Made by a program: the position numbers and the translations under genes. Under the pieces are notes generated by a model, which saw nothing but the letters and a program-made list of their open reading frames with translations, ran no database searches and was not told the DNA's origin. Source: Malacoraja senta (taxonomy: Eukaryota). Taken from it: a DNA stretch of 64,000 nucleotides. Each line of letters begins with the position of its first letter. Position 1 is the stretch's first letter. The stretch spans positions 2,420,001 through 2,484,000 of the forward strand of contig CM075993.1 in the NCBI GenBank assembly GCA_038087875.1, given 5' to 3'. This document shows, piece after piece, positions 8,034-50,949 of this stretch.

Positions 8034-8061
8034 CTGAAGAAGGGTCTCGACCCGAAACGTC
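8034..8061 (+). ncRNA. Minimal type I hammerhead ribozyme motif (Penelope-associated, subfamily A)
   Basis: CTGAAGA-A-GGGT-CTCG-ACCC-GAAAC-GTC: both conserved core boxes, 4-bp stem II, GUC triplet; stem I weak or absent in this copy. Activity not shown. Confidence 0.55.
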
Positions 8062-9966
8062 ACCCATTCCTTCTCTCCAGAGTTGCTGTCTGTCCCGCTG
8101 AGTTATTCCAGCATTTTGTGTCTATCTGTAAATTGTCCCTGGTGTGTAGGATAGAACGAATGTACAGGTGATCGATGGTCGGCAAGGAGGACTCGGTGTG
8201 CCGAATGGCCTGTTTGGTCAGCATGGGCAAGATGGGCCGAAGGGCCTGTTTCCACGCTGTATCTCTAAATAAAACTAGTGTAGATGGGGCATGTTGGTCA
8301 GCATGGGCAAGATGGGCTGAAGGGCCTGTTTGCATGCTGTATGGTTCGATGACTCTAAACTCTTCCAAATCCATTGGCGGCATAAGCAAATAACTCAATG
8401 CTTACTCCTAGTTCAGCATCTCAAGCAAAGATGTTAATTACACTCATGTACAAATATTATTCTAAGTCAAAGTTTTATAATTATCAAAGATTCAGCGTCC
8501 ATGACTGATGTCTGAGACCTTTAAGATAATGAACTAGTTATTCTCGATGTAGGGAAGGTATTTTCAGTTCTGAATCAAAACTAGGCCTCATAAATATGTG
8601 ATAAGCACCAGTAAATCCCAAGACATATTCCGGAATTTTCTTTTTCTAATCCAGAGGGTTGAAAGCAGAAATAAGTTAGCTCAAGGAAAATAGTTTAGAT
8701 GAGAAAAACAGTAAATCTTACGATAATCTGGATCTTAAGATAATCTAGATAAACAACTGATGGAGTCACAGTGTCAGAGTCAAACAGTGTGGCCTTTCGG
8801 CCCAACTTGCCATGCCATTTAACATGCTCCATTTCGCTCCATTCCCGATAGCTCCATTTCTCTGAAGATAGACACAAAAAGCTGGAGTAACTCAGCGGGG
8901 ACAGGCAGCATCTCTGGAGAGAAGGAAGGAATGGGTGACGTTTCAGGTCGAGACCTTTCTTCCGACCCGAAACGTCACCCATTCCTTCTCTCCAGAGATG
9001 CTGCCCTGTCCAGCTGAGTTACTCCAGCTTTATGTGTCTACTTTCGGTTTAAACCAGCATCTGCAGTTCCTTCCTACGCAGTCATCTAACAAAGCCCTCA
9101 ACTCCATTGGTCCTAGCTGCCCACGTCTGGCCCACATCCCTTTAAACCTGTCCTGTTCTATATACCTGTCCAAATATTTCTTAAATATTGTGATAGCACC
9201 CGCCTCAAGTACCTCCTCTGGCAGCTTGTTCCATACAGCTGTTGTGCAAAAAAGGCAGTGTGTGAGGGTGGTCTTTGTCCTGCCATTAATGCCTTGGTGA
9301 GAGAGCTATTAGTTTTCACAGCAGGACTCCATTTTGAAAATTAATAGGGGAAGAGCAATTCAGTTTGAGTTTGATTGGACTGTAAATTGTGACTCTAAAT
9401 GCCTTTTAACCAGTGATTGGGTCTACACTCTGGTGAGGTTGAGTATAGACTTATTGGTGCCTTCCCAATCAATATATACCAATCAATATATACCAATCAA
9501 TATATATAGAAAAGCAATACCGGGCAGGCTTATGTCCTTACTTTGAGTGCATGGATCATTCGTTCACATAATGTATGAATCACTAGTTAGACCAGCATTT
9601 ATTATCTTTATTTATTGTCCATGAGACAAATTGCTAGGTTGTGGCTGGGGAGCAGTCGAGTCAAACAAAGGGATGGGTTGCTGAAGGAGGGGGTGATACT
9701 GAGAGGGATAGTGAGGGGTAAGGGGTGAGGTGGGTCGATTGGGCAAAGGGTCGACATGGAAAAAATTCTCGGATGAATCTTGAAGAGCACTTTTAACAGT
9801 TCATGTTAAAAAAAGTAGGTGAATCCAGGATCAGAGGCCATAGACTCGGAATAAAAGGTTGTACCTTTGGAAAGGAAATGAGAAGGAATTTCTTTACTCA
9901 GAGGACGTGAATCTGTGGATTCAACCAGCAGTCGACCAGCGGGGTACCTTGAGTGGGACTTTGAGA

Positions 9967-12635: not shown

Positions 12636-14420
12636 GTGGAGACACAGGAGATAGGCAAGGTGTTAAAAGAATATTTCTCATTGTTATTTACCATGGAGAA
12701 AGACATAGATCTAGCAGGCACGGAAATCGTTGTCAAAACATGCGGGGGACACAATTTTTTGGCGCCCGCACGCGTGCATGCCAGACCTGGTTGGTGGCCG
12801 ACTCCGAACTCCAGCAACAGCAGCTTCATCCTCCACGAATCGTGGGGCTTGAATCGGCCCGTTCGCCGGGTCTTTCATTGGCCAGCATCGGGAGCCTCGA
12901 TTGCCTTGATGCAGCAGTTTGATTTTAAGCCGCGCCGGGCGCTTAAAAGCCCCGCGAACGGGCTGATTCAGCCCTTAGAAAGCGTCCGATAAAGTCCGGA
13001 TTACAAAACATGGGAGGGATTGTCCCCACCTCTCAAAGCAGGGGCGGACGTGTCCCCCCTGTCCCCCCTGTCCCCCCCCCCAGGATTTCCGCCCCTGGAT
13101 ACTAGGGAACTGGGGAAGTTAATAGTGATATCTTGAAGAGAGTCCACATCTCAGAAGAGGATTTTCTGGAGTCTTAAAAGGCATGAAGGTAGCTAGATCC
13201 CCAGGATCTGATCAAGAGTATCCTAGAACTGGGTGGGAAGTTGGGAAAGAAATTGCAGTGCCCCTTGGCAGAGATATTTGTATCATTGTTAGGCACGGGT
13301 GAGGTGCTGGTAGACTGGAGGGTGGTAAATGTGCCTCTATATTACGGCATGAGCAAGTTGGGCTGAAGGGTTATTGTCCACGCTGTATGGCTCAATTTAA
13401 TCAAGGAACAGTCTGGCAACTGCAGATCAGTAAGCCTTGCATCAGTGGTGGGTACGTCATTGGAAGGGATTCTGAGAGACAGGATCTACATGCATTTGTA
13501 AAGGCACACGTTAGTCAGAGGGTGGTTAGTCTATCGCAATGTCCACAGAGGGCTGTGGAGGCCAAGTCAATGGATATTTTTAAGGCAGAGATGGATAGAT
13601 TCTTGATTAGTTACAGGTGTCAGGGGAGAAGGCTGGAGAGTGGAGTTAGGAGGGAGAGATAGATCAGCCATGATTGAATGGCAGAGTAGACTTGATGGGC
13701 CGAATGGCCTAATTCTGTTCCTATCACTAACAATCATGACTAAATAGGGAAAGTCAGATTTGGCTTCAAGTGTGAGGAATCTTGTCTTGTGAGTCTGAAG
13801 ACAGGTGTCAGAGGTTATGGGGAGAAGGCAGGAGAATGGGGTTAGGAGGGAGAGATAGATCAGCCATGATGAAATGGTGGAGTAGATCTGCGGGTGCAGC
13901 AGCATCTATGGAGCGAAGGAAATAGGCAACATTTCGGGCCGAAACCCTTCCGGGTTTCGTCCCGAAACGTTGCCTATTTCCTTCAAGGTTTCGGCCCGAA
14001 ACGTTGCCTATTTCCTTCGCTCCATAGATGCTGCCGCACCCGCTGAGTTTCTCCAGCACTTTTGTCTACCTTGTCTTGTGAATTTGGTTGAGTTATTTTG
14101 AGAGGCAACTGAGAAGAATGATGAAGGGAGTGCAGTAGACGTTGTTTACATGGACTTTAGCAAAGGCCTTTGACAAGGTCTAGAAGGTTAGATCACCTGG
14201 AATCAAGAGCAAGCTAGCCAATTAGATACAACATCGGCTTGAAGGTATGAGATAGAGAGCAGTGGTAGAGAGTTATTTTTCACACTGGGGGCCTGTAAGA
14301 AATGATGTGCCACTGGGACTGGTGCTCTGTCCACTGTTGTTCATTATTTATATTAACGATTTGGATGTGAAGATACGTGAGATGATGAGTAGGTTTTCAG
14401 ATACCATTAACATTTGACGT
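12636..14420 (+). mobile_element. Old degraded CR1 ORF2 (RT region), split by several later insertions
   Basis: Pieces read ETQEIGKVLKEYF, SPGSDQEYPR, DWRV, GSAVDVVYMDFSK..FDKV, IYINDLD across frameshifts. Confidence 0.72.
12715..13097. mobile_element. hAT-type MITE inserted in an old CR1 ORF2
   Basis: TIR caggcacggaaatc / gatttccgcccctg (12/14); TSD gat(a)ctag / gatactag; CR1 reading EYFSLLFTMEKDID|TRELG resumes after it. Confidence 0.75.
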
Positions 14421-15630
14421 TTTACGTTCAGCACCGGGCCTGCACTTGCTGCAGATTGGAGGAACGAGGGGGGGCCTCGTTGAAACTTACCGAACAGTGA
14501 AAGGCCTGGATAGAGTGGACGTGGAGAGGATGTTTCCACCAGTGGGAGAGTCAAGGACTAGAGGTCACAGCCTCAGAATTAAAGGACATTCGTTTAGGAA
14601 GGAGATGAGGAGGAATGTCTTCAGTCAGAGGTCGCTAAACCTGTGGAATTCTTTGCCACAGATGGCTGTGGAGGCCAAGTCAATGGATATTTTTAAGGCA
14701 GGGAAAGATAGATTCTTAGGTACACAAAAATGCTGGAGAAACTCAGCGGGTGCAGCAGCATCTATGGAGCGAAGGAAATAGGTAACGTTTCGGGCCGAAA
14801 CCCTTCTGCACCCGCTGAGTTCCTCCAGCATTTTTGTGTACCTTCGATTTTCCAGCATCTGCAGTTCCTTCTTTAACAAAGATAGATTCTTGATTTGTAC
14901 GGGTGCCAGCGGTTATAGGGAGAAGGCATAACCTTCCAATAACCTTTTACATATATACCAAGCCAATTAACCTATCAACCTGTACGTCTTTGGAGTGTAG
15001 GAGGATATCGAAGACCCCGGAGAAATCCAACGCAGGTCACGGGGAGAACGTACAAACTCCGTACAGACAGCAGATCAAACCCGGGTCTCTGGCGCTGTGA
15101 GGCAGTAGCTGTACCACTGCGCCACTGTGCCGTCATGTAACCTTTCCTCTCTCCTGGATTAACGACCAAGAATCTACAGTCTCCTCGATAATATTATGCA
15201 CAGAAATAACGCATAATCACATCGCAGGTCAACAAAATTATTATTCACACTTTTATTATATCATGTTAATTTTGCAGCTGCTTTGGTGGGATTATAGCAA
15301 CATGGACAATAAATCAAATTTGCATTTTATTGACTACCAACATAGGCAACTTGCATCTGATTTAAAGTTGTGTTAACGGTTTCTGAAGAGGAATTGCTAA
15401 TTAAGAATGCGTGACAGATCTTGCAAGAATCCCTCTTCACTAATTTCAGTTTCCTTGTATTGCTGATTAAACTGAAGATGCTGATTCATAAAATCATGCC
15501 ATTGTTAAACAGGCAGCAGCAAAATATTCAGGAAGGTTACCTCACTATTCATCCCCATTGCCTTTGGTCGACACAAAATGCTGGAGTAACTCAGTGGGAC
15601 AGGCAGCATCTCTGGAGAGAAGGAATGGGT

Positions 15631-15660
15631 GACGTTTCGGGTCGAGACCCTTCTTCAGAC
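15631..15660 (-). ncRNA. Minimal hammerhead ribozyme motif (subfamily A) at the apex of a fold-back repeat
   Basis: Reverse complement gtCTGAAGAaGGGTctcgACCCGAAACGTC. Confidence 0.6.
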
Positions 15661-15769
15661 TCCACCCGAAACGTCACCCATTCCTTCTCTCCAGAGATGC
15701 TGCCTGTCCCACTGAGTTACTCCAGCTTTTTGTGTCTATCTTCGGTTTAAACCAGCATCAGCAGTTCCC

Positions 15770-16071: not shown

Positions 16072-17920
16072 TTCCTACACACTAACAGCCTCTGGCGATG
16101 TATTCATATTGCAGATCTGAAACATTTTTCATTTTATCCCTGGAGAGCAGGAGGATGAGGGGGGTGATACAAAGACCTATAAGATAATGAGGGGAATAGA
16201 TCGGGTAGATACACAGAGCCCGTTACCCAGAATAGGGGAATTAAGAACCAGAGATCTGAAGACGGGTCTCAACTCGAAACGTCACCCATACCTTCTCGAA
16301 GCATCTTCTTTCCAAATAAAGACATCAAACTCTCAAAAATCACCTCATCACTCAAACTCTCATTTCTCTTTTGCTCAAGGCTCTCTAAGTAATCTAGATA
16401 CTAAATTAAAATTTAATGGTGGTGCTGGCTCAAAGGGCCGAATGGCGGTGGTGGCTCGAAGGGCCGAATGGCCTACTTCTGCACCTATTGTCTATTGTCT
16501 AAAAGATTCTCGTTGACAATCTTTTTAACTTTGGGCTTTTCATCCATTTGATGCTTCTCCACAGACCTGTTAATGAAAGATATGCAAAACGTTGTGTCTG
16601 TATAACTCATTATCACCTAGGCCACTGCCAACAATGGACCATTGTGGGCTCCACCTTTCCCTGATCATCGTTACATTTTGCATGTCTTTCATTCATTCGT
16701 TCTATAACTCTCTATATCACCGTCTATATCTCTCGTTTCCCTTTCCCCTGACTCTCAGTTTGAAGAAGGGTGTCGACCCGAAATGTCACCTATTCCTTTT
16801 CTCCAGAGATGCTGCCTGACTTTCTGAGTTACTCCAGATTTGTGTGTCTATCTAAAGCATTGCACTACCCTGATATTAATTTAATTTCCCAACAATAACA
16901 TTCCCTGTGCATATTCCTAATTATTACTGCCTGAAGCCAAATATACTTGGGTCAACGGAGGGGTAGGGAGGAGCATAACGTGATGCATTGTTTTGATGGT
17001 CCATACTGCGGTTTCTGGATGGGAAAGGTACAGGTCCCAGAAACTATTGAGGAGGATAAACTTTGTTCTTGCACGATTTTCTCCCAAGTATCACAGTCAT
17101 CTCTGCCAGTTCAACTGTTTGACTGCTCCACTTCATGGTGAGATTATGTTCCAAAGTAAATGGAACTGTGAAAAAGGAAAGAAGAGTATAATGATGATTA
17201 TCTAGTACATTACGTACCTGCGAAAAAAGCAATTGTGATGCCTTTCTCATCAGTTTGGTCATTGGGTTGCACAGCATGGATCCATTGAATACTTGCTGAC
17301 CATCGAGCACCATGATGGTCAACCATCAAGGTAAACGTTGGATTACACTAACCCAACACCAATCCTGTTTTATTCCCCCCACAATCCCATCAACTTCCCT
17401 CCCCACCCCACCCCCTCTCATTCCGCCACTCATCCACACAATGACGTTTGTTAGTTTCGTTTAGAGACGCACCGTGTCAACAGGCCTTTCGACCCCACCG
17501 AGTCCACACTGACCATCGATCACAGGTTCACAATAGTTCAATGTTATCGCTCTTTCACATCCACTCCTTACACACCAGGGGCAATTCTACAAGAGGCCAA
17601 TTAATCTTTGGGATGTGGGAGGAAACCAGAGCAGGAGAATGGGGTTGAGTTGGAAAAAAATAGACCAACCATATATCGGCAAAGTAGACTTGATGGGCTG
17701 AATGGCCTCTAATTCTGCACTGATGTCTTACGCTCTTAGAATAAGTCTGGACCTTGGTGAATGTACTCAACTGGGTTGGGGTAAATTACAACATCATTGG
17801 AGAGCAACTTGGGAGCAACTGTTGTTGCTTAAGTCCTCACCTGAGATGTGGGTTTTGTGTAAAGACCAGTTGATCACAGGTCTGGACCGCTATGCCCCAG
17901 TAAAGCAGAGGGACAATTTT

Positions 17921-18655
17921 GGCATGGCAAGGCAAGGCAATGCAAGGCAAGGCAAGGCATGGCATGGCATGACATGGCATGGCATGGCAAGGCAAGGCAA
18001 GGCATGGCATGGCAAGGTAAGGTAAGGCATGGCATGGCATGGCATGGCAAGGTAAGGTAAGGCATGGCATGGCATGGCAAGGCAAGACAAGGCAAGGCAA
18101 GGCAAGGCAAGGCAAGGCAAGGCATGGCATGGCATGACATGGCATGGCATGGCAAGGCATGGCAAGGCAAGGCAAGGCAAGGCAAGGCATGGCATGGCAA
18201 GGTAAGGTAAGGCATGGCATGGCATGGCAAGGCAAGGCAAGGCATGGCATGGCATGGCAAGGCAATGCATGGCATGGCATGGCATGGCAAGGCAAGGCAA
18301 GGCATGGCATGGCAAGGTAAGGTAAGGCATGGCATGGCATGGCATGGCATGGCAAGGCAAGGCAAGGCATGGCAAGGCAAGGCAAGGTAAGGCATGGCAT
18401 GGCATGGCAAGGCAAGGCAAGGCATGGCAAGGCAAGGCAAGGCAATGCATGGCATGGCATGGCATGGCAAGGCAAGGCAAGGCAAGGCAAGGTAAGATAA
18501 GGTAAGGCATGGCATGGCATGGCAAGGCATGGCAAGGCAAGGCAAGGCATGGCATGGCATGGCAAGGCAAGGCAAGGCATGGCATGGCATGGCAAGGCAT
18601 GGCAAGGCAAGGCAAGGCATGGCATGGCATGGCATGGCAAGGCAAGGCAAGGCAT
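17921..18655. repeat. Pentamer satellite (GGCAA/GGCAT/GGTAA)n, 735 bp
   Basis: Unbroken 5-bp phase over 147 units. Confidence 0.97.
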
Positions 18656-18958
18656 CTTTAGCCACTTTCTGACATCACAAAGATTTCCTTTGAATGACTA
18701 TTTCTGAAGTGCGTGCCACAAATGCCGGCACGGTGGCGCAGCGGTAGAGTTGCTGCCTTACAGCACCAGAGACCCGGGTTCGATCCCAACTACGGGTGCT
18801 GTCTGTACAGAGTTTGTACGTTCTCCCCGTGACCTGCGTGGGTTTTCTCCAGGTGCTCCGGTTTCCTGCCACATTTCAAAGGTACAGGTTTGTAGGTTAA
18901 TTGGCTTGGTATAATTGTAAAATGTCCCCAGTGTGTGTAGGATAATGTTAGTGTGTGG

Positions 18959-20610
18959 CAGGGCCCTCTTAACGCATGGGCACGCTGGCAGTTGCCCGGG
19001 GCCCCACGAGCATAGGGGCCCATGCTAATCTATGTATGTCGTGATTTGCTGCCAATTATATAAATACTATACTACACTAAACTATAAATATTTGTTATTG
19101 GCAAAATGCATATTTAGCATGTGTTTTACTAAAGATAATGAACAATATTAATGTGAATTTTTATGCTAACAAGTGGACCTTGGCATCCGCCTCTGAGTTA
19201 GTATCACGGTCACCTCTGCAACCACACGTGCACGTACGTGTACATATCTCACACGCTACATAACTGGAAATCCTGGAAAAGGGAGCCCATCGTATTTATC
19301 CGCAAACATTTGTGAGGAATTTATTGAATTAAGCCCCTGTCCCACGATGCGAGTTTGCCCAAGAGCTCTCCCGAGTAAAAAAAAAAAAATCAAACTCGTG
19401 GTACTTCATCACGAGTATTTTTTTACTCTTGGACATTTTTCACAGTGTTGAAAAAACTTCACGAGTTACCGCGTTTCCCAAGAACCTGCCGTTAGCATTA
19501 CGAGCCGTTACGAGACATCCACGAGCTCCGATGTAGTCGTGGTAAGTAGTACATTCTACGTACTTTACCACGAGTTTGATTTTTTTCTTTAAACTCGGAA
19601 GAGCTCTTGGGTAAACTCGCATTGTGGGACAAGGGGCTTTAACGGGACAACGTTCTTTGTGCTATTCTTGAAGAAATAAAAGAGTCAAAAGTATGATTCA
19701 ATAAGTGTGGATTCCACTCCAGACATCTCACACACTGATCAACTGACATTTACTGTCCGGTACATTAGAGGATGTGAGCCTGTGGAACGTTTCATGAAGT
19801 TCATCCCCATCTTTTCTCATGGAGCAAATAATCTAGCAGACACTGTTGTGGATTTCCTTAATGAGAACAAAATTCCACTATCAAACTGCCGTGGTCAGTC
19901 GCGTGACAATGCCTCAAATATGTCTGGATGCTATACTGGATTGCAAGCATGGATTCATCACCTGAATGAGTTTGCCATCTATGTCCCCTGTGCTGGACAC
20001 AGTCTGAACTTGGTGGGTGTAAAAGCGGCAGAGTGTTGTCTACAGACTAACATCTGTTAGTTCAGTGTCTGTATTCCTTTTTCTCTGCTTCTACACATCG
20101 ATGGAATGTTCTGGCATCATCTTTAGGAAAAAACGTTGTGGCCAAGCGTCTGTCTGACACGAGATGGCCGTCACATTTTGATGCTGTTCATGCTCTGTAC
20201 GGGGGTTTGGAGAAAATTAAACATGCACTGGATTCTGCGTCAGCTGGCACTGAACAGGAAGTGAACACAATGCGAGAGGCAGAAGGATTGAGCGATAAAA
20301 TGGAGAGCCTGGAAACGATCTTCCTCACAATTCTTTGGAATGACATTCTTGAAAGAGTGAACAGAACAAGTCAGGTCCTGCAGTCAGAGGATGTGAACAC
20401 ACTTGTTGCCATGAATCTTCTTGAGTCTCTGAAAACCTATCTTCAGGAATTTACAGACTAATTTAGCGAATACGAATTGAAAGCCAGGAGTAGGTGTCTA
20501 GATTCAGATTATAGCCATGTGAAAAAACGGGAACCAAAACGAAATGTGTAGATCAGGGCCCCAGTGCACAGCTTTGCTCGGGGGCCTATAATGCTGTTAA
20601 GTCGGCCCTT
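18959..20610 (+). mobile_element. hAT DNA transposon, internally deleted, with transposase remnant (ZMYM1/PRKRIR-like hAT type)
   Basis: TIRs cagggccctcttaac / gttaagtcggccctt (12/15), 8-bp TSD gtgtgtgg / gtgtgcgg; ORFs 19707-20060 and 20138-20461 contain DSTPDISHTDQL, CRGQSRDNASNMSG, YVPCAGHSLNL, LSDTRW; stops present, C-terminal dimerisation domain not seen. Confidence 0.9.
19332..19638. mobile_element. PIF/Harbinger-type MITE inserted in the hAT transposase frame
   Basis: TIR agcccctgtcccac / gtgggacaaggggct, long inverted arms, TTA TSD both sides. Confidence 0.85.
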
Positions 20611-21136
20611 GTGTGCGGGGTAATTGCTGAATGGTGCGGACTCGGTGGGCCGAAGGGCCTGTTTCCGCACTGTATCCTGAAACTAAACTAAATGAGACAA
20701 AAAAATACTGATGTATATTCACGGAACTGCTGAGTAATTTTTCTTCAACTTTAACTCACTCTCCACGGCTGCCTGTCCTGCTGTTTCCCTGATGTAGATT
20801 GTCAGTTTAATATTAAATCACCGATCTTCAGTTCAGTGGCTTCATATCCACTGGCAACGGAGAGGCAGACACTGCTTTATTTAATTTAACATCTTAACAG
20901 GCAGCAGAGCAGCGTTCTGCCGTACATCTTGACGATAATATAATCTCATATCAGCTCCTGCAGCAACCACTCTCTGAGATCCTCGACTGAAATTGTCAAT
21001 TTTATGTCAATTTTTGGAGCATTCTGAGTTGTTTTCACTACATCATGACCACACATGGTCCGAATGTCCTTTCATCTTGTTAGAAAGAGGACACAGGCAA
21101 TTAGTTGGTTGGCATGGATTTGAATTCCAATTGCAA

Positions 21137-21462
21137 GGTGGCACAGCGGTAGAGTTGCTGCTTTACAGCGCCAGGGACCCGGGTTCGATCCTGACCACGG
21201 GTGCTGTCTGTACGGAGTTTGTACGTTCTCCCTGCGACCTGCGTGAGTTTTTTTTACGATCTTCGGTTTCCTCCCACACTCCAAAGACGTACAGGTTTGT
21301 AGGTTAATTGGCTTGGTGTGTGTGTAAATTGTCCCTTGTGTGTGTTTGTGTGTAGGGTAGTGTTAATGTGCAGGGATCGCTGGTCGGTGCGGGCTCGGTG
21401 GGCCGAAGGGCCTGTTTCCGTACTGTATCACTAAACTAAACTAAATTAAACTAAACTAAAAC
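21137..21462 (+). mobile_element. tRNA-derived SINE, same family
   Basis: A/B boxes, core, (ctaaa)n tail. Further copies at about 4475-4708(-), 14940-15132(-), 22012-22233(-), 28390-28560(+), 31245-31462(-), 32457-32745(+), 35778-36105(+), 36545-36873(+), 42540-42655(-), 42715-43015(+), 60958-61225(-), 61240-61385(+), 63870-64000(-). Confidence 0.87.
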
Positions 21463-22611: not shown

Positions 22612-23519
22612 TAATGATCCACTGTGGAATCTCTGCCTACTTTGGTTGTCACCCTCTCTCTGACAGGCGTTTTGTGAGACCCTCGCCCACTGCTTCCCCC
22701 TCTGTTCCCTTGTTCTTCGAACATGTTCTAATCCGGACTCACTACCACAGTCACGTGTCTTTCCCTGGTTCAATCTGACGAAGAGTCCCGATCAGAAACA
22801 TTGTCTGTCCATTTCCCTCCACAGATGCTGCCTGACCCGCAGAGTTCCTCCAGCAGTTTGTTTTATTGCTCTGTGTTGGGCAAAGGGTGGTTTGTGAAGT
22901 AAGCATGATCCGTTTGTAACTGCAGAGACTCAAGTTACCAAACGGTTGTTTACTGCATCGAAGTCTGCAATTCCCCTGGGACTTGATAATCAAGAAGAAA
23001 AAAACGTATTAACTTCCCAACAAAAGAACCTTAGATTCTTTTTCTCTGGAACGCCAGAGGTTGAAGGGATCTGATAGGAGCAAGTAAAACTATGCCAGGC
23101 AGAGATAGGGTCTTTAAGTCAGATTTGTAGGTTAATTTGGCTTTGGTATAAATTATATAGATTGTCCCTAGTATGTGGAATGGTGCTAGTGTGTGGGGAT
23201 CGCTGGTCGGCACGGACACGGTGGGCCAAAGGGCCTGTTTCCACTCTCTATCTCTGAACTTTTTCATCTTGCGTATGGCGTGCACAGCCTAAAGTTGTCG
23301 GACCACTTGTTCTATTTGATCTTATTTGCATTCGTTGAAACATGGCGGACCACGTGAAGGTTGCAATCTCCCACCCCATCTCTGAACTGTACTGACATTA
23401 CGTAAAAGTTGCACATAAAATTCTGTAATTCAGTTTAAAGATGAAAGACCATGCAATAAAAGCAAGACAATAGTACAAAGCACAATTAGAAATAAAAGTA
23501 AGTTTGAGGTAGTGCAAGA

Positions 23520-23878: not shown

Positions 23879-26286
23879 AGAGGTGGTCCATGATATTCTA
23901 ACACCTCTGTAACTGTGAATAAATTATGTAGAATATTTAAATGCTTTAATCTTCTTCTTTTCGTGTCCATCTTGTTACAAATGTTGGCCTCGCTGTCATC
24001 ATCCGTCCTGAAAAGGACGCATGCTTCCGGCGACAATCAGTGGAAGCCATCACTTGTCGCAATAGATGATGGTGGTAGCAGAATTAGCTCGGGATACTTC
24101 CAGTTTCCAGCCCCGCGACGTGGACGCTCCTGCTATGGGGCCAATGCTTTAATTATATGTCAATATTCCTGTTTCACTCTAGTTCCTCATTGAGTGAAAC
24201 TCTTTTACCTTGCACTAAACGTTATTCCCTTATCCCTGAAGAAGGGTCTCGACCCGAAACTTCACCTATTCCTTCGCTCCATAGATGCTGCCTCACCCGC
24301 TGAGTTTCTCCACCTTCCAGCATCTGCAGTTCTTTCTTAAACACTCCCTTATCATGTATCTATACACTGTAAATGGATTGAATGTAATCACGTATTGTCT
24401 TCCCGCTGACTAGATAGCACACAACAAAAACTTTTCACTGTACCTCGGTACACGTGACAATAAACTAAGCTCAACTTTTCCTTTAAGACCTTTATTACAG
24501 CAGATGATTAATACATAATGCATTAAGGAAAAGTATATTTACTGTGATAATACTATTCAAATATAATATCTACACTTCTATTAGTATACCAGTGAGGCCT
24601 CTTTTTGTAGGTACTTGAGTTAATGAACCCTTGTTTTGCTTTTACATAATCAATCAATATTCTTGTCTTCAAAGTGTTTTTTATTGTACTGTTGCCTATG
24701 TTTAATTCTTGTTGCAATCACATCTCCATAACATCACCTAGAATTATTCTCTTTAACATATGATAAGACTGATGAACTAAAATTGATAAATTTTGCTTCA
24801 AGAGTCATGTGTTTAACTTTCACATACACGGGACGATGACTTCTTTCTTACTGAAGCTATACAAGCAATCAATAAACATGCAATAAATTGTAATATACTA
24901 AATTATCAGTTATACTAGGTGTTAAAGAAAGCACCACAAAGATCAGGCAAGGTAATCAAGGTAATGAAGAGTGTCAAAAACAGTGATCACTGGGAATCCT
25001 AGATTGCTCAACCAACAAAGATTTATCTACTCCTTAGAAAACAGAATTTTCCTGTGATGTGTTGTTTACTGTTGCAGGCACTTATGTATTTTTCTTTCTT
25101 CTGAATAATCTCATAACAATTATAAATCGTGCACCTCCGTAAAAATACAGATCAGTAAACACAGCCCAATTCCACAGCCCCATTACCGATCAGCAGATGT
25201 CCTGTTACCCTTTCCACCTGTTTTTTTAAAATTGTTTTCGCATTGCCGTTTGTCCTTTGACAACAAAGAACAGAACCTGACGACAGTAGGCTGCAGGAAG
25301 GGCCAGGTACACATGCTCAATATCAACCTTCTTTAAAGCACAGAATTATTTAGACACATGAAGAGGACTTTGAGGTAGACAAAAGTTCTGGAGAAACTCA
25401 GCGGGTGCAGCAGCATCTATGGATTTCCTTCGCTCCATAGAAGCTGCTGCACCCGCTGAGTTTCTCCAGCACTTTTGTCTACCTTTGATTTTCCAGCATC
25501 TGCAGTTCCTTCTTAAACAAGAGGACTTTGAGCATTATTAGGCACTCTACCTGTCCCTATCTTCTGCTGTCGTCGTGAAGCTTAGTCATTTATTTTTGAC
25601 ATGGGTAACCAGGTCATCATAAAGCAAGCCAAAATATCTTGTGCAATCTATAATGCCTAGTGTATAATAGTTTGGTGCTGAGGTAGGGTTGTGGTTTGGA
25701 TTGTGTCGGGTGGTTCAAGATTCTGATCGTTGATGAGAAGAAGAAGCTCTTCTCGAACCTGTGGAACCTGGACGTAGCAGTCTCAGGCCCCTACACCTAC
25801 TGGAGAAATTGAGAAAGAAATTTGAGAAAGAGCAGAACAGTGCTCCCTAGTGTCCTGGTCAATAATTTATCCCTCAATTAAAAAAAAATATTAAATGAGA
25901 TCATGTTTTTGTGGGAGCCTGCTGTGCACAAACTGGTTCCCTCAGCATCAACCTTCAAAGTACCTCACTGGCTTTGGGATGTGGAAGAAGCTATATAAAA
26001 AGCAGGGCGCATTCAAAGTGTTCAGCAAATGTCAGACAGCATCTGTGCTGTCCTTGCGGAGTTTGCACGTTCTTCTTGTGACCGTGTGGGTTTCCTCCGA
26101 GTGCTCCGGTTTCCTCCTACATACCAAAGACGTGCGGGTTTGTAGGTTAATCTCCCTCTGTACATTGTCCCGACTGTGTAGAAAGTGGGAGAGCATAGAA
26201 CCTGTGAACCAGTAGATACTACAAAGACTTGTGGGCATTGGTCTTATCTTTTTGCAATATTATTAGCGGGTGTGTCTATCTATATC

Positions 26287-28322: not shown

Positions 28323-29124
28323 TAAAGCTGATCACAAGCAGACTCTCTGCTGCTCCACAAGGTACCGAAGATAGACACGATAGAAGATAGGGCGGCACAG
28401 TGTCGCAGCGGTAGAGTCGCTGCCTTACAGCGCTTGCAGCGCTGGAGATCCGGGTTCAATCCCGACTACGGGTGCTGTCTGTGCCGAGTTTGTACCTTCT
28501 CCCCGTGACCTGCGTGGGCTTTCTCCGAGATCTTCGGTTTCCTCCCGCACTCCAAAGACACAATGCTGGAGTAACTCAGCGAGACAGGCAGCATCTCTGG
28601 AGAGAAGGAATGGGTGACATTTTGGGTTGAGACCCTTCCTCAGACTGTCTACTCCCCCTTTGCCTCCCATAGTTTTATATACTTCTATCAGGTCGTCAAA
28701 ATCTTGAAACAGGTACAAGAGCTCATCGAGTGCACGCTGACTATTGATCTCCCATTCACACTAGTTCTACGTTATCCCACTTTATAATCCACAGGCGTAC
28801 TTTTACAGTGTCCAATTAGCCTACAAACCACTCGTCTTTGGGTTGTGGGAGGAAACCGGAGCACCTGTAGGAAACCCACGAGGTCACAGGGAGAATGTGC
28901 AAACTCCACACAGACAGCACCGAAGTCAAGAGTTAAGAGTGTTTATTGCCATATGTACCAAAACAGGACAATGACATTCTTGAACATTGAATTCTCCCAA
29001 TTCTGCTAGCCCTTGCTGTCCCCTCCCCTTCATCAGCCCTCTGGTTGTCTCCTCCCCTCCCCCAGCCCTCAGGCTCCTCCTCCGCCTTTTTCCTTTTTTC
29101 CTTTCTTCTCCCCACCCCCTATCA

Positions 29125-29156
29125 GTCTGAAGAAGGGTTTCGGCCCGAAACGTTGC
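29125..29156 (+). ncRNA. Minimal hammerhead ribozyme motif (subfamily B)
   Basis: gtCTGAAGAaGGGTttcgGCCCGAAACGTTgc: UUCG-capped stem II, palindromic AACGTT in place of stem III. Confidence 0.6.
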
Positions 29157-30699
29157 CTATTTCCTTCGCTCCATAGATGCTGCTGCACCCGCTGAGTTTC
29201 TCCAGCATTTTTGTGTACCTGCTGGAGAAACTCAGCGGGTGCAGCAGCATCTATGGAGCGAAGGAAATAGGCAACGTTTCGGCCCGAAACCCTTCCGGGT
29301 TTCGTCCCGAAACGTTGCCTATTTCCTTCAGGGTTTCGGCCCGAAACGTTGCCTATTTCCTTCGCTCCATAGATGCTGCTGCACCCGCTGAGTTTCTCCA
29401 GCATTTTTGTGTACCTTCTCGATTGTCAGGATTGAAGCCCGGTCTCTGGTGCTATGAGCACTAGAGCATTGTCTTCACACTGATGCCATAAGCTGTGCAG
29501 GAATTTTAATATTAGTCAAAGCCCCCTGATAACAATCCTGTAACATTGCTAAGATAGACACAAAATCTGGAGTAACTCGGCAGGTCAGACAACATCTCTG
29601 GAGAAAAGGAATAGGTGACATTTCGGGTTGAGACCCTTCTTCAGACTGGGATAACATTGCTATCTGCTCTGGAATTCTGCTCGTATTTCGCTAATGTTCC
29701 TTTCTGAGATTGAGATAAGAACAGGCATGGAATGATGCAGATAATGGCATTGATGGGCTGCCATTTTACACTTGCCTTCAATGGATTTTCCGGTCACTTC
29801 TCATGGCACTTAGCTAATCCTTCACGACTTCAGCCTTGTCTAAAGATTAGATGCATCTTCAATGTGTTGGAGTGCCTGACAATACAAAGTGTTTCTGCCA
29901 CAGTAAGACCTTTTTGGGGAAAATGCCTCAAATTGAGCGATGCATCTGACTGATATGAGATTTATTTGAGAAAGACTTGCTTTCTGTGTCCCTTCCACTC
30001 AAAAGGTGCTGGGAAACATACTTCGTGAAAACAGGCCATTCAACCCATTGAGTCCATGCTGACCAGAAAGCAAAGATAGACACAAAAAGCTGGAGTAACT
30101 CAGCGGGACAGGCAGCATCTCTGGAGAGAAGGAATGGGTGACGTTTTGGGTCGAGACCCTTCTCCAGAGATGCTGCCTGTCCCGCTGAGTTTCTTTAGCA
30201 TTTTGTGTCTATCTTGGATTTAAACCAGTATCTGCAGTTCTTTCCTACGCATTTTGACCATAAAGCACCCATTTACATTAATCCCTTGTCGACAAAAATG
30301 CTGGAGAAACTCAGTGGGTGAGGCAGCATCTATGGAGCGAAGGAAATAGGCAACGTTTCGAGCCGAAACCCTTCTTCAGACATTAACCCCTGATTTATTC
30401 TCGCCATATTCCCATGGACTTTCACTAGACTTTACCATCCCTCTACACGTGGCAAGACTTAGAGCAGCCAATCTGCCAATCGATTTCATGCCTTTGGGAT
30501 GTGGGAGGAAAGTGGACCATCTGGTCACAGGGAGGGTGTGCAAACTCCACACAGACAGCACTAGAGCAGTTGGGATTGAGTCCAGATCACCGGAGTAGTG
30601 AGCTAGCAGCCGTCCTACTCGCAACGTTCTGCACCTTTCATTTAGTTTAGTTTAGTTTAGTTTAGAGATACGGAAACAGCACCTTAGGGCCGCCGGATC

Positions 30700-38199: not shown

Positions 38200-39349
38200 G
38201 TTGTGTCTATCTTCAGTGCAAACCAGCATCTGCAGTTCCCTCCTACACTTTCTACCTTAACACCATTAAATATAACAAGTTATATTGTCGAAGATCTGCA
38301 CGTGGAGAATCCTCGCAGAAAATAAAGGGGCGAAAAACTCCAGGTACTAGTTTTTGAAGTTTGGTAACAAACATTCGTGTTAAAAAAAGCTCACTTTATT
38401 CCTTTTATTAAAAGAACAAATTGATTGTTCCTTTTACATAATTCACAGCATTGTTCCTCTGCAGAGAAAAGAATGACTTTGTTCAATTGTGAAGATTCTG
38501 TTTGTTCAACAAAGACTTGTTAAGTACCTATTTTTACTGGGACCATTGCCATTTTATTTGTGTCAGCCAGTGTTTAAATCTACAAAGTGTTGGCATGTGT
38601 GTCTGGGAAAGTCATCATCAAGGCATCGACAGAAGTATTGGTTTCTTATTTTGTGGTGTTTAAATAAGCTCGGAACAATATCACGCTCAGTACATCTTTG
38701 CACTTAGATTTCATTGCCGTTTCTCCCACTCTGCCAGCTCACTTCGGAGGAGATTTGGAAGAAACAAAACAAGTATTTCTGTCAAAAACTAAAGGGTCAA
38801 TGTTACTGGAGAAAGCCCATGGAAATTCCTGCTGCTTGGCTTTGGTTTCATTCCCAGCTTAGGTTTCATATGCAAAGGTGAACGACCCGCTGCAGCGTTG
38901 GAAATTGTGCCCCAGAACCAGCCATGTCTCAGGTGAAGGAAGGAACTGCAGATGCTGGTTTAAACCGAAGATGGACATAAAAAGCTGGAGTAACTCAGCG
39001 GGACGGGCAGCATCTGCGGAGGGAAGGAATGGGTGACGTATTGGGTCGAGACTCTTCTTCAGACAAAGGGTCTCGACCTGAACGTCAACCATTCATCCTC
39101 TCCAGAGATGCTGCTTGTCCCGCTGAGTTACTCCAGCTTTTTGTGCCTATCTTCACGTCTCAGGTTGAAGCTGTTCCAGCACAGTAACAGCACTGGCATG
39201 TACGTCAGGATGCGAAAATTGTCCTTTTTCATAAACGATGCAACATAGAACACAGCACAGCACAAGAACATCCCCCTTGGCCCACGGTGGCCAAAGCAAA
39301 CTTGATGTTGAGTTAATCTAATTTCTGCAAGTGTGTGATCCATAATCAT

Positions 39350-39520
39350 CCATTGGGCAGTAAGTTTGCCAAATGAAATATGAGATGCTGTTCCTCCAAT
39401 TTGCATTTAGCCTCACTCTGACAATGGAGGAGACCTCGGACAGAAAGGTCAGTGTGGGAATGGGAAGGAGACTTAAAGTGTTTAGCAACTGGGAGATCAG
39501 GTAGGTCCAGGCAGACTGAT
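39350..39520 (-). mobile_element. Penelope-like element, GIY-YIG endonuclease C-terminal fragment
   Basis: ORF 39346-39552: PVAKHFKSPSHSH..LEEQHLIFHLANLLPNG, the H-F-x3-H ... E ... P-x-G-x-N end typical of Penelope GIY-YIG domains. Related fragments at 21472-21625 (-), 52182-52250 (+), 62115-62200 (-). Confidence 0.8.
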
Positions 39521-40292
39521 ATACATTCTCCTGCTTGTGACCCTAAAAACAAGTTATGTTTATGCGGGAGTTAAGTGCATTGGATAAGACATGGGTGTGT
39601 CAACCTCCGATGCTCCAGAGAAAACAATCGTACATTCATTAGCGTTGTAGTGTTCACAAAAATATCTTTATACCTGGCACCCTATCAAACAACTGATTTC
39701 TTTACATGCTCTTTGTACCCTTCCATATCTCTAGACTCCCTCTCCCCTGACTCTCAGTCAGAAGAAGGGTCTCGACCTGAAACGTCACCCGTTCCCTCTC
39801 TCCAGAGAAGCTGCCTGTCCCGCTGAGTTACTCCAGCATTTTGTGTCTATCTTCGGTGTAAACCAGCATCTGCACTTTCTTCCTACACGTTTTGTCTGCT
39901 CCAATGCGAAATCTCCTCCAGGTACGGCTACTTTGAAGAGGTTCTCCTCCTCTCTCCGGCGAAAGTTCTGCAACACCCTCTCTCGCTGAAACCACCTCTG
40001 TGATTCCTTCTGCTCTACGGCTCATTTCCTTGACCAATGTCTGCTTTGATCTGTCCTTTTCACACCTTACATGTTCTTTGTACCTTTCCATATCTCTTGC
40101 CTCCCTCTCCCTGACTCTCAATCTGAAGAAGCAAAGCAAGAAGTTCATTGTCCTATCTGGGACACATGACAATAAACTCTCTTGAATCTTGAACCTTGAA
40201 TCTTGACCTGAAACGCCACCCATTCCTTCTCTCCAGAGACGCTGCCTGTCGCGTTGAGTTACTCCAGCAATTTGAGTCTACCTTCGGTGTAA

Positions 40293-42186: not shown

Positions 42187-43690
42187 TAAAGCAGCACCTG
42201 CAGTCCCTTCCTACAGATCTCCTTTCCTTCTGTGTAACCGGTTCATGACTAAGTGATGAATCCTACAAAGGGAACGAAAGGCTTCAGGTTCCCTTTGGTT
42301 GAAAACTACTCGGCGATCCCGATCAAGAATTCAAACCCACGGACGAACAGAATTGAAACCTGTCACACGGCCTCGGGGAAAGATGAAGGAATGAAAACCT
42401 CCTGGTTACAGTCTTTGAAATGCAAATAAATCGAATCACAAATGCAAAAGATGTGCGGCATTCCATTTGTCAGTTCCAGAGGTTTGACGCATTCCGAATT
42501 TTGGAGGCAAATTGACTAGACTAGAGACTAGACTAACCAACGCTGTCGCAGGGAGGACATGTGAACTCCACGCCAACAGCACCTGAGATCAGGATCGAAC
42601 CCGGGTCTCCGGTGCGGTAAGGCAGCAGCTCTACCGCTGCCCCACCGTGCCGCCTTTGAATAAACACTGATATCGCCAGAGGTGGCACATCCAGGAAAAT
42701 AGAACACGTAAAACGGTGGCATGGTGGCGCAGCGGTAGAGTTGCTGCCTTACAGCGCTTGCAACGCCAGAGACCTGGGTTCGATCCCGACTATGGGTGCT
42801 GTCTGCACGGAGTTTGTACGTTCTCTGCGTGGGTTTTCTCCGAGATCTTTGGTTCCCTCCCACACTCCAAAGACGTACAGGTTTGTAGGTTAATTGGCTT
42901 GGGTTTGTATACTTGGTATAAGTGTAAATTGTCCCTAGTGTGTGTAGGATAGTGTTAGTGTGCAGGGATCGCTGGCCGGTTTCCGCGCTGTATCTCTAAA
43001 CTAAACTAAACTAAAAGAAAAGTCTCTGTACTAGAAATATAAATGATATTGTCATGGGCTCCCTGCTGCGTTCTAACCTACAGAGAGGCAGTAGTCCGTA
43101 CCACATCATATTGGCGGGGAGATTGGCGATCTCCCACCCATTGTTTGTCAGTAACGAGATGTGCCTCGGTGAGATAGTCACCATGGGAGACAGTGGTGTC
43201 CAGGCATTCGCCTGGCTGAACTGATGAACACTTCTTCCTTGCACCTCACGTGCCTCAACTGGACAGCGGGCGGTGTGTTAGATGAGATTGCCAATGGTCC
43301 CTATCGCTTGGAGCCCAAGTGCAAGTGGCACATTGTGTGGAGCTCCCAGGGGGGGTGACTGATTGAACGGGGAAGTGTAATGACATGGCGACGTTGTGAT
43401 TCCAGTCCTTGATCTCACTGCTTGCCGGTACAAGCAAGGACACAATACTATGTGTGTAGAAATGAAACCGTGGATGCTGGTTTATACTGAAGATAGACAC
43501 AATAAGGTGCTGGTGTAACTCAGCGGGCCAGGCAGCATCTCTGATGGATATATATAGATACACACACATGCACACACAGAAGCACACGCAAACACACACA
43601 CAGACGCACATACACGCGCACACAGACACACACACGGCAAGCACACCCAGACATACACACACATCGACACACACACATATATATATAAAA

Positions 43691-45544: not shown

Positions 45545-47119
45545 TTTTTTAATTTTTAATTTTTAATTTTTTAAAATTTTAATTTATTAGAAGTACATTA
45601 CATTACAACCAATTACATTAGTACTCATCACGTATATCTTATTACAATTAATGTACTCCGTCCTTTTTTACACTGATAAAAAGGAAAGGCTGAGATTAAG
45701 AAAAAAGAGAAAGTGAAGGAAAATAGTGAAGGTGTAAAAACGTGACAACAAGAAAGAACAGAGACCCTGTAGAAAAGAAATTAAAAAGAAAGGATTAAGA
45801 GATAGACCCTAAAGAAGAAAGAAAAGAGAAAGAGGAAAAAAGAGAAAAACAAATACTTTGTTATAAGCATCACACAAATGGGATATACCAACTCTCCAGC
45901 TTTCATCCCCCTTTACCTGACCTCAGTTTTTTTTTAAAGTACTTTTGCACCCTATACTTGTAATAATTCTATAAATGCAGACCACGTCAGGTGGAAGTGA
46001 TCTGGTTTACCTGCCAGGAGGAGTCTTATCTCTTCTAGGTGTAATGTTTCAAACATATTTGAAATCCACATGTTTATAGTTGGTATTGGAGCGTTTTTCC
46101 AGAATTTTAGGATTAACTTTTTTCCAGTTATTAACCCGTAATCTATTAATTTCTTTTGAAACACATTTAGTTCAGGACTATCTTCTGTTCTTCCGAAGAT
46201 AATCCATTCTGCTTTTGGTATCAGTTTTATTTTAAATAATTTTGTAAAGATTTCAAAAATGTCAATCCAAAATTTTTGAATTTTTGTACAAAAAACAAAT
46301 GAGTGCGCTATAGTAGCATCTTGAGATTGACATTTATCACAAATAGATGATACATTGGGGAAAATTTTATTAATTTTAGTTTTTGAATAATATAATCTAT
46401 GTAACATTTTAAATTGTATTAAAGTGTGTCTTACATTAATCGAACATTTATGCACGTTTAATAAATGTTCTTTCCACCTTTCCTTTGAGATTTTAATAGC
46501 TAATTCTTGTTCCCAGTCTCTTCTAATACCTTCCGTAGATGGTATTTCTACATTTAAGATAATATTATACAAATATGATATTAAGTTTGCTGATTCAGCT
46601 TTTATCTGCATTGCTTCATCCAATACATCTGCTGGGATATTATAATGATCTCTTGTATATTTTTTCAAATAGTCACATATTTGAAAATATTTAAAATATT
46701 GATTATTTCCCAGTTTATATTTTATTTGTAATTGTTGGAATGATAGTAATTTTCCAGTTTCATACAAGTCACCGAACGTTTTAATTCCTAGTCTATCCCA
46801 TTGTATAAAAGATTTGTCTGTAATAGAGGGATTAAACGAAGGGTTATTAACTATTGGAGATAAAAGCGATAGATTTCTTAATTTTAAATTTTGTTTTATT
46901 TGTTTCCAAGTTCTGATTGTACTATGTATAATTGGGTTTTTGTTATAATTTATGTTATTCACTTTCATTGGTGAGAGGAGGATCGCTCCAATATTACCAG
47001 AGGAGCAGTCCTCTCTCTCCATTACAATCCAGTCCACTTGCTGGGTAGAGTTGTCCATCAGTTGGATCATATTTTTAATATTTACTGACCAATAATAATA
47101 CATTAAGTTAGGGAGTGCT
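45545..47119 (-). mobile_element. Second, 5'-truncated copy of the same L1-clade 3' end, directly in tandem
   Basis: ORF 45952-47103 is colinear with 47516-48667 (offset 1564); similar 3' UTR and A-rich tail at about 45545-45590. Confidence 0.92.
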
Positions 47120-50100
47120 TTTTTTTTTTTTTTAATTTGTATTTTATTAGAAGTACATTACATTACAACCACATACATTAGTACTTGTCATTTATATCTT
47201 CTTACAATTAATGTACTCCATTTATTTTTTACACTAGAAAAGGAAAAGATTGAAAGAAAGAAGAAAGTGAAGGAAAAAGTGGAAGTGTAGGAAATGTGAC
47301 AACAAAAAAGGACAAAGACCCTATAAGAGCAAAATTAAAAACAAAAGAAAAATAGTTAAGAAATAGACCCTAGGAAAAAAAGAAAGAGAGAAAGAGGAAA
47401 AAGAGAGAAACAAATATTTTTATGAGCATTACGCAAAATGGACATACCAACTCTTCAACTATCCCCCCTTACCTGACCTCAATTTTTTTTATTTTTTTTT
47501 AAGTACTTTTGCACCTTATGTTTGTAATAATTCTATAAATGCAGACCACGTCAGGTGGAAATGATCTGGTTTACCTGCTAGGAGGAGTCTTATCTCTTCT
47601 AGGTGTAATGTTTCAAACATATTTGAAATCCACATATTTATAGTTGGTATTGGAGCCTTCTTCCAAAATTTTAGAATTAGCTTTTTTCCAGTTATTAACC
47701 CATAGTCCATTAGTTTCTTTTGAAACACATTTAATTCTGGACCATCTTCCGTTATACCGAAGATAATCCATTCTGCTTTGGGTATCAGTCTTGTTTTAAA
47801 TAACTTTGTAAAGATTTCAAAAATTTCATTCCAAAATTTTTGAATTTTTGTACAAGAAACGAATGAGTGCGTTATAGTAGCTTCTTGGGATTGACATTTA
47901 TCACAAATAGATGATACATTTGGGAAAATTTTATGAATTTTAGTTTTCGAATAATATAATCTATGTAAAATTTTAAATTGTATTAAAGTGTGTCTTACAT
48001 TAATCGAGCATTTATGCACATTTAATAAGTATTCATTCCAACTTTCCTTTGAAATTTTAATAGCTAACTCTTGTTCCCAGTGTCTTCTGATACCCTCCGT
48101 AGATGGTATTTCTACATTTAAGATAATATTATACAAATATGATATTAAGTTTGCTGATTCAGCTTTTATCTGCATTGCTTCATCCAATACATCTGCAGGG
48201 ATATTATAATGATCTTTTGTATATTTTTTCAAATAGTCACATATTTGAAAATATTTAAAATATTGATTATTTCCCAGTTTATATTTTATTTGTAATTGTT
48301 GGAATGATAGTAATTTTCCAGTTTCATACAAGTCACCGAACGTTTTAATTCCTAGTCTATCCCATTGTATAAAAGATTTGTCTGTAATAGAGGGATTAAA
48401 CGAAGGGTTATTAACTATTGGAGATAAAAGCGATAGATTTCTTAATTTTAAATTTTGTTTTATTTGTTTCCAAGTTCTGATTGTACTATGTATAATTGGG
48501 TTTTTGTTATAATTTATGTTATTCACTTTCATTGGTGAGAGGAGGATCGCTCCAATATTACCAGAGGAGCAGTCCTCTCTCTCCATTACAATCCAGTCCA
48601 CTTGCTGGGTAGAGTTGTCCATCAGTTGGATCATATTTTTAATATTTACTGACCAATAATAATACATTAAGTTAGGGAGTGCTAAGCCCCCTAATACTTT
48701 AGCTTAGTTCAAGTGTGTTCTTTGTATTCTATGGGATTTATAATCCCATATAAAATTAGTAATGTCTGAGTCCAATTTTAAAAACCCCATCTTTGGTAGG
48801 TATATAGGAATCGATTGAAATAGGTATAAAATTTGTGGTAAGAAGATCATTTTTATTGCATTTATTCGGCCTATTAAAGACATCGGAAGCGTTTTCCAAA
48901 ATTTAATTAATGTATTTAATTTATTAAGTAGAGGATCATAATTTGCTTTGAACATGCCTTGATATGTTCTGGTGATTTCAATACCCAAGTATTTAAATTT
49001 TTCTGTAGCTATTTTAAAAGGGAATTTTAAAAGATGTGTTGAGTCTTTCGGTTTTATTGACATAATTTCACTTTTATTCCAATTTATTCTGTATCCAGAA
49101 AAGGATCCAAAGTCCTCAATTAGATTTAATATGTTTGGTATAGTAATTTGAGGTTTTGTAATGTACAATAATATATCATCCGCGTATAAAGATATTTTAT
49201 TATTTGAGTATTTAATATTATACCCATGGATATCTGGTTGTGTTCTAATTTTTTCTGCTAAAGGTTCAATTATGAGAGCAAACAACTGTGGTGATAATGA
49301 GCGCCCTTGCTGTTTCCCCTTGATAGTTGAAATTTCGAGGATAGTATGTTATTAGTTAATATTCTAGCTGTAGGTTTATTATATAATAATTTAATCCATA
49401 AAATAAAATTCTCTCCCAGTTGGAATTTTTGTAATACTTTATCCATATAATTCCATTCTACTTGGTCAAATGCTTTTTCAGCGTCCAGCGAAATAATTGA
49501 TAATTCTTGTTCTTCAATTTTCTGTGAGTGCATTAGATTGAGTAGACGCCTCATATTATTAGATGAATATCTCTCAGGGATAAACCCCATCTGATCTGGG
49601 TTTATTAATTTACTAATATATTTACTTAATCTTCTAGCTAATGTTTTCGCTAATATTTTTTGATCTGTATTTAACAATGCTATAGCTCTATATGAACCTG
49701 GTTCTTCTAGATCTTTGTCTTTTTTAAGTATTAGTGTGATCGTTGATTCAGCTAATGTATCAGGTAATATTTGTTTTTTAAAAGCATATTGATACATTTT
49801 TTGTAACCGTGGCATAATTTTGTCATAAAAGCTTTCATAAAATTTATTAGTAAATCCATCAGGACCTGGAGTTTTTCCATTCTTTAATGAATTTATTGTG
49901 TCTTCTAATTCCTTGATTGAAATTTGTGCACCCAATTCCTCTTGTTCCTTCAACTCTAACTTTGGAAGATTACAATTATCCAAGAACTCTGTAATTTTAT
50001 TGGAGTCCGTTGTCGTTTTACATGTGTACAAATTCTCATAAAATTGCGCAAATCTTTTTTTAATATCCTTCAGTATGGTTAGTAATTCCCCTCTATCTGA

Positions 50101-50749: not shown

Positions 50750-50949
50750 NNNNNNNNNNNNNNNNNNNNNNNNNNNNNNNNNNNNNNNNNNNNNNNNNNN
50801 NNNNNNNNNNNNNNNNNNNNNNNNNNNNNNNNNNNNNNNNNNNNNNNNNNNNNNNNNNNNNNNNNNNNNNNNNNNNNNNNNNNNNNNNNNNNNNNNNNNN
50901 NNNNNNNNNNNNNNNNNNNNNNNNNNNNNNNNNNNNNNNNNNNNNNNNN
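50750..50949. other. Assembly gap (200 N)
   Basis: Run of N. Confidence 1.

Follow-up and report, generated by a model that had tools for sequence, protein, structure and literature searches.

Many short copies of a minimal hammerhead motif in skate DNA: a Penelope-like pseudo-LTR repeat and a likely by-product of its copying

The 64,000 nt of Malacoraja senta DNA analyzed here (the window) contain a minimal hammerhead motif many times over. Does this abundance reflect ribozyme action, or the way in which the element carrying the motif is copied? The core pattern CTGANGA-N13-GAAAC has 12 matches in the window, whereas 100 dinucleotide shuffles averaged 0.02 matches and never gave more than one. 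The repeat that bears it is the 3′ end (pseudo-LTR) of Penelope-like retroelements (PLEs), in which such a minimal hammerhead motif is usual. That the repeat is so numerous is probably due to short cDNAs copied from uncut RNA, rather than to ribozyme action, and for this reading as a whole we estimate a probability of about 0.75.

The motif and the repeat that carries it

The motif at 29125–29156 (Table 1) begins with GT, CTGAAGA (29127–29133), an extra A and GGGT-TTCG-GCCC (29135–29146). Its 3′ half consists of GAAA (29147–29150), CGT, a T at position 17 of the standard numbering (29154) and GC. In RNA terms, these are a 2-bp helix I, CUGAAGA plus the extra A, a 4-bp helix II with a UUCG loop, GAAA and an ACGU palindrome, and the cut is predicted after 29154. 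Positions below are counted from C3 of the core (+1), with the predicted cut between +28 and +29.

Table 1. Features of the repeat family in the window
Feature	Position	Strand	Remarks
Minimal type I hammerhead motif, subfamily B	29125–29156	+	core-pattern match
GIY-YIG frame end of subfamily B, NIEFSQFC*	28983–29009	+	last eight residues as in P0003; contigs run upstream into GIY-YIG-like codons
Pyrimidine-rich 3′ UTR, subfamily B	29010–29124	+	ends in pyrimidine tract plus CAG
Conserved downstream segment to first 3′-end cluster (about +94)	29157–29220	+	
Second insertion, head-to-head pair of 5′-truncated B copies	29220–29418		both without CUGA box
Typical short B copy	53628–53757	+	starts at motif 5′ edge, motif intact, ends at tail (+129)
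Intact A motif	15629–15660	−	within head-to-head pair spanning 15570–15768
Intact A motif (N7 = G)	52963–52994	+	665 nt from same-strand intact B motif at 53628
Intact A motif, loop CCCG	56857–56888	−	
Intact B motif	30350–30381	−	two G-U pairs in helix II
A motif, core and helices kept	29615–29646	−	palindrome now AUGU
A copy, core intact	8034–8127	+	without 5′ strand of helix I
Long A copy	59128–59527	−	broken GIY-YIG end, 3′ UTR, decayed motif
Long A copy	2499–2848	+	GIY-YIG end, 3′ UTR, motif with broken palindrome, tail
58-codon GIY-YIG C-terminal fragment	39349–39522	−	inverted beside A copy at 39725–39888

All sites cited in a preliminary description of this DNA are among the 12 core-pattern matches, although its spelling of the motif does not hold letter for letter: 52965 reads CTGAGGA, the loop at 56862 is CCCG, 53630 has TTTG plus ACCC, and 30355 has GCTC. 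The two subfamilies it distinguished are real: the 35 A pieces scored have a median identity of 92.9% to their own consensus, and the 17 B pieces one of 96.7%. Judged by sequence, subfamily A is the older and B the younger. Both consensuses retain the 11 core letters, H17, the extra A, G10.1-C11.1, the 4-bp helix II, the ACGU palindrome and the 2-bp helix I. The CUGANGA and GAAA boxes, together with U16.1 and H17, are present in both consensuses and in 12 of the 23 motif-spanning copies. After the extra nucleotide that follows A9, helix II opens with the 10.1-11.1 pair, which is G-C in 14/17 and G-U in 2/17 copies. Palindromic positions 15 and 16 stand in for helix III, and read ACGU in the A and B consensuses. 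Helix I is 2 bp long and paired in 94% of cells of the aligned copies; a longer stem I was looked for in A and B copies and none was found, so the earlier caution that only about 2 bp were visible was correct. A PLE-derived repeat with a minimal type I hammerhead, a palindrome at stem III and one additional nucleotide following A9, as the locus had been read, fits the published minimal hammerhead (min-HHR) consensus.

An Rfam scan of the window, with E values of up to 1 allowed, matched no hammerhead family. The same scan recorded an HDV-like ribozyme at 24077–24150 (−), matching CPEB3_ribozyme at 35.8 bits (gathering score 35; E 7.4e-06 for the whole window) and, as far as Rfam shows, present there as a single copy. 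By eye, it has P1 (6 bp, G-U first), P2 (8 bp), P3 and a CUAA joiner, with an apparently decayed P4; the predicted fold includes P1. A limited literature search found nothing on a CPEB3-like sequence in skates.

Counting pieces that score at least 25 against a subfamily consensus, the motif-bearing repeat comprises 64 distinct pieces and 5,820 bases, or ∼9% of the window; blast from five window copies yielded 70 merged matches. It is indeed the commonest short repeat here, with a self-hit depth of 51–69 versus at most 21 for the next family. The second commonest repeat is SINE-like, with ∼21 copies (e.g. 3692–3811, 4514–4708, 18726–18938, 21133–21445 and 42718–42975). An older third type of the motif-bearing repeat, whose motif has decayed and whose upstream UTR is distinct, lies at 22763–22861 (+), and loose contig ends at 29160–29161 also suggest more subfamilies with the same motif and a different linker. 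Elsewhere in the window are long L1-like ORF2 pieces at 45952–50991 (−), with RVT_1 and zf-RVT matches and the C-terminal 400 codons twice in tandem, and a five-base satellite of ∼850 nt at 17837–18697 that translates as Cys-Leu-Ala-Leu-Pro-Cys-His-Ala-Met-Pro repeats. A transposase remnant in two frames at 19680–20461 (+), the first with a weak DUF4371 match, is presumably hAT-like.

The link to a GIY-YIG frame, also proposed earlier, was borne out. The segment 59437–59528 (−) encodes SEAKRKLEERQLIFH*GSLQPSDIDFFNFK*, the copy at 2499 has the same end, and subfamily B has a frame end of its own, NIEFSQFC*. The motif is placed 115–300 nt after the GIY-YIG stop. Upstream of TCAGT, the B 3′ UTR is not alignable to A. 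NIEFSQFC also ends P0003, a protein of Leucoraja erinacea (little skate) that has an RVT_1 match, a weak GIY-YIG match and 68% identity to the 58-codon fragment in Table 1. That fragment has 79 relatives among 1.84 billion protein representatives; nine were looked up, and the eight with NCBI names are all from skates or rays. Pfam gave no match for the 58-residue fragment alone, and the GIY-YIG matches in 3 of 10 scanned relatives were all under the curated cut-off. Relatives P0007, P0025, P0026 and P0028 contain a CX3-4CxxC linker, in a region that the window copies do not span; according to Craig 2021, a CX2-5CxxC linker between RT and EN is a Neptune trait that Nematis shares.

Within the window, we saw neither a full-length parent element nor an RT domain of one, nor a transcript end. 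A longer-protein search returned one match, and no translated motif region from which helix I could be read in other taxa was present among the relative proteins fetched. Searches for outside DNA relatives of the repeat gave none in viral contigs and 58 matches in metagenomes, 0/58 being similar by blastn. The sole candidate among genome contigs was a bacterial coding sequence, and was rejected.

Where copies start and end

The 3′ ends of 63 pieces fall mainly into two groups, 28 at +84 to +97 and 25 at +121 to +130, with 10 elsewhere. These clusters, ∼34 nt apart, are the 30–40 nt PLE tail. Fourteen head-to-head pairs of 5′-truncated copies were found, and the tail is one-sided in 11 of them, a PLE pattern described by Craig 2021. 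Target duplications of 9–17 nt are clear at 5/14 pairs and 2/36 solo rows, and some boundaries are thus alignment-based. One pair, at 1020–1219, is joined exactly at the motif's ACGT palindrome and has tails on both partners. Two separate insertions (13872–14072 and 29220–29418) share the same complex junction, in which 34 nt are duplicated internally between the inverted partners; this points to copying of an already rearranged unit. Rfam microRNA matches at 29166–29329, 13922, 25386, 30093 and 32865 correspond to head-to-head pairs.

The 5′ ends show a different kind of clustering. We found 29 solo copies and left out two, one beside an N gap and one a duplicate alignment. Thirteen of the remaining 27 start in −6 to +3, eight in +4 to +55 and six further upstream, equivalent to 0.103 ends per nt in −6 to +3 versus 0.0067 inside. 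The −6 to +3 window was picked after viewing the data; in a best-window scan, 11 of 100,000 trials were as extreme. Without seven doubtful copies, 7/20 still start there (p = 1e-4). Among inverted-pair members the corresponding fraction is 7/27, and only one of the 27 solo starts lies near the predicted cut site.

Words of the repeat occur in sequencing runs of 12 studies. In the genome-like run X1 (80,679 contigs aligned), summed depth rises from 2.5–3.5 million upstream to 23–29 million over the motif; this contig depth is not a copy number, and the step is blurred by edge effects. Since A-type letters make up <10% in X1, the step is not mainly due to A aligned on B. Among the loose ends listed for X1, the one at 29125 (−1) comprises 229 contigs with unrelated flanks (agreement 0.33). 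RNA runs X18 and X19 contributed one contig each, on the pyrimidine tract only, X17 being a presumed RNA run; contigs here carry no ends or strand.

One way to account for the edge is splicing. The pyrimidine tract plus CAG would be a 3′ splice site (the junction considered lies between AG and TCTGAAGA), an upstream exon would lengthen helix I, and the pile-up would mark the acceptor. Completion of helix I by splicing has been proposed for D. virilis Penelope, in which helix I begins where the intron ends (Cervera 2014; Schostak 2008, PMC2377424). The six A and B copies that keep CAG have 20–23 pyrimidines in the preceding 25 nt, these sites are within the top 0.2–1.5% of the 3936 YAG sites in the window, and A–B homology begins at TCAGT, the word at the motif's 5′ edge. 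However, the entire UTR is pyrimidine-rich. In copies that start at the edge, the site's G, AG or CAG is retained and the left flanks are unrelated, with 5–18 pyrimidines in 25 compared to 20–23 for the element's own UTR, and no shared exon is seen. Moreover, there is no GT..AG among the 13 contig joints listed, in which only donors inside 28970–29125 are detectable. We consider completion by splicing possible but rather improbable.

Short copies might also stem from one or two non-autonomous masters, SINE-like or retrozyme, that happened to start at the motif edge. Copy length is fixed at 95–135 nt, as such masters would predict, and animal retrozymes are reported as PLE derivatives. On the other hand, A and B have the same 5′ edge, each with its own GIY-YIG end and UTR, and the tails and inverted pairs match insertions of autonomous PLEs. 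A tandem array of motif-bearing units is also absent from the window, none being found among the 70 merged matches. These data make a non-autonomous origin unlikely.

The explanation we favor, short cDNAs on uncut RNA, has three steps drawn by analogy with a Poseidon-clade element. The PLE protein would begin reverse transcription internally, at either tail site (about +95 or +129 from C3). Reverse transcription would continue back through the uncut hammerhead, and the cDNA would most often stop at the motif's 5′ edge, where there is likely an RNA start (TCAGT) or a splice acceptor. Each event would leave one half-ribozyme on a 95–135 nt piece. In the parent element, the motif may cut weakly after GUC or GUU, either as an ACGU-palindrome dimer or with help from the PLE protein. 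The word TCAGT resembles a Pol II initiator. The start-site reading of the edge is favored over the splice acceptor about two to one, and PLE promoters lie in the pLTR. Whichever reading of the edge holds, the number of motifs would reflect cDNA ends, not ribozyme function.

The analogy comes from an Anolis PLE (Frangieh 2024, PMC11167929). There, reverse transcription in vitro starts inside the RNA at two sites that match the tail, the hammerhead cuts only with protein, uncut RNA is the main template, and hammerhead mutants still insert.

We tentatively suggest a more specific version for the skate repeat, in which the motif's 5′ edge is an RNA start or splice acceptor and reverse transcription primes 95–130 nt downstream, so that any pLTR transcript could yield a 'strong-stop'-like cDNA with exactly one half-ribozyme. 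If true, this would explain the thousands of lone PLE hammerheads across animals and would allow the PLE promoter to be located using only genome data. It would also mean about one intact, cross-compatible half-ribozyme per 9 kb of skate genome, switchable by PLE protein or a second copy. The 5′-edge pile-up, if genome-wide, ties the published internal start of reverse transcription to the mass of lone hammerheads. The B family is young, very abundant (97% identity) and sharp-ended, and hence offers large numbers for testing the role of PLE hammerheads: copy starts distinguish a cut from an uncut RNA template, and cutting by lone copies would show as a strand bias in introns.

Conservation, decay and predicted fold

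The core is unchanged between subfamilies and stem II keeps its pairing (U-A to U-G), as had been noted earlier. A reading of the subfamily differences as selection on the fold finds no support here; both helix differences between A and B are one-sided. In an alignment of 17 window copies, 93.4% of cells pair and only one cell is changed on both sides, and the covariation score is no better than that of shuffles (242/500 as high). Between the A and B consensuses, 0/11 core versus 16/100 downstream positions differ (p = 0.36), which is not a significant excess of core conservation. Within subfamilies, non-CpG changes number 11/221 in the core versus 211/2644 downstream for A copies (p = 0.12), and 0/80 versus 66/1234 for B copies (p = 0.03), the latter downstream count being inflated by sub-lineage sites. 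The B result may hint at selection during amplification. The CpG at catalytic G12 decays neutrally (5/27 versus 21/114 downstream).

We also considered whether the motif is a dead relic, with a shrunken helix I and a sequence kept for another role, such as promoter or protein binding. The 2-bp helix I, the lack of any two-sided change between A and B and the nonsignificant consensus comparison are all in line with this idea, as is the finding that cleavage is dispensable for insertion in vitro (Frangieh, PMC11167929). Yet none of the 11 core letters, nor H17, the palindrome or either helix, has been lost from the A and B consensuses, and helix I is likewise 2 bp long in published min-HHRs of Culex, D. 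virilis and Oikopleura (PMC4209133). A relic of this kind is a possible account, though we lean against it.

To gauge the fold, we turned to ViennaRNA. The probability of helix II was ∼0.00 in native flanks and 0.05–0.14 in the shortest construct, and the double-hammerhead fold lay 15–30 kcal/mol above the best fold. The energy model thus disfavors the active fold; as a calculation without a known active min-HHR for comparison, this counts only as a caution. It is in line with the weak in vitro cutting published in 2014 and with the protein dependence described in 2024. The downstream pyrimidine tract is predicted to pair with the core, and we considered an evolved 'lock' of this sort. The cost of opening the monomer is 5–8 kcal/mol, and as high in 40–70% of 200 shuffles of the downstream sequence; with a cost no higher than for shuffled sequence, the lock was rejected.

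These results bear on the proposal of an active dimer ribozyme in many dispersed copies, whose same-strand neighbors, A with B included, would pair via ACGU and cut host or read-through RNAs. In its favor, the core and all helices are kept in 7 of the 23 motif-spanning copies, intact same-strand neighbors lie 665 nt (52965/53630) and 735 nt (29644/30379) apart, the helix I and III strands of A and B appear cross-compatible, and the B core gives the hint at p = 0.03. Against it are the folding predictions above, the neutral decay of the CpG and the poor cutting of published dimers (PMC4209133). We regard this proposal as quite unlikely.

Overall, on sequence grounds, evidence for selection or ribozyme activity appears weak, and most genomic copies are likely inert. 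The term 'expanded ribozyme-bearing family', used in the preliminary description, is apt for the sequence but not for ribozyme function: copies decay neutrally with the cut site still joined, which favors reading the expansion as a by-product of how PLEs are copied.

Comparison with known systems

Min-HHRs in the pseudo-LTRs of metazoan PLEs, dispersed as single motifs, have been in print since 2014 (Cervera and de la Pena 2014, PMC4209133), and the motif itself therefore adds a lineage, not a concept. In that paper, the min-HHR is type I with a CUGANGAH core, an extra base after A9, G10.1-C11.1 and GAAA-palindrome-UH without helix III, and it follows a GIY-YIG frame and occurs as dispersed singles, in the thousands; the skate motif is alike in these features. 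With 2 bp in helix I and 4 bp in helix II, it lies toward the lower limit of the published lengths, in which helix I is mostly 3–5 bp and 2 bp in some. Among the species seen in Table S1 and Fig. S3 of that paper, none is a cartilaginous fish. Among the papers listed by our literature searches, none dealt with skate PLE hammerheads or with a 5′-end pile-up at the motif.

D. virilis Penelope (Schostak 2008, PMC2377424; Cervera 2014) resembles the skate repeat in its 2-bp helix I, in an acceptor-like site 5′ of the core and in its tail (34 bp, compared to 34 nt in skate). Its helices II and III are longer, and its intron and start have been mapped, the start being 46 nt before a 75-nt intron, whereas the skate start and acceptor are putative. 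Non-LTR retrozymes (Li, Clavereau and Pollet 2026, bioRxiv 10.64898/2026.07.22.740005) are likewise PLE-derived with a type I hammerhead and are reported in one chondrichthyan; they are tandem units with a ribozyme in each, whereas skate copies are single or head-to-head.

Poseidon_Ac of Anolis carolinensis (PMC11167929) probably differs in clade, and it differs in layout. Its ORF starts at helix II, whereas the skate motif has N7 = A and no ATG in the core, and ray relatives of the skate element have a CX3-4CxxC linker, which is Neptune-type, not Poseidon. The likeness lies in the two end points that delimit the tail, ∼65–100 nt downstream of the hammerhead, and in the use of uncut RNA as a template, reported for Poseidon_Ac and proposed here for the skate repeat.
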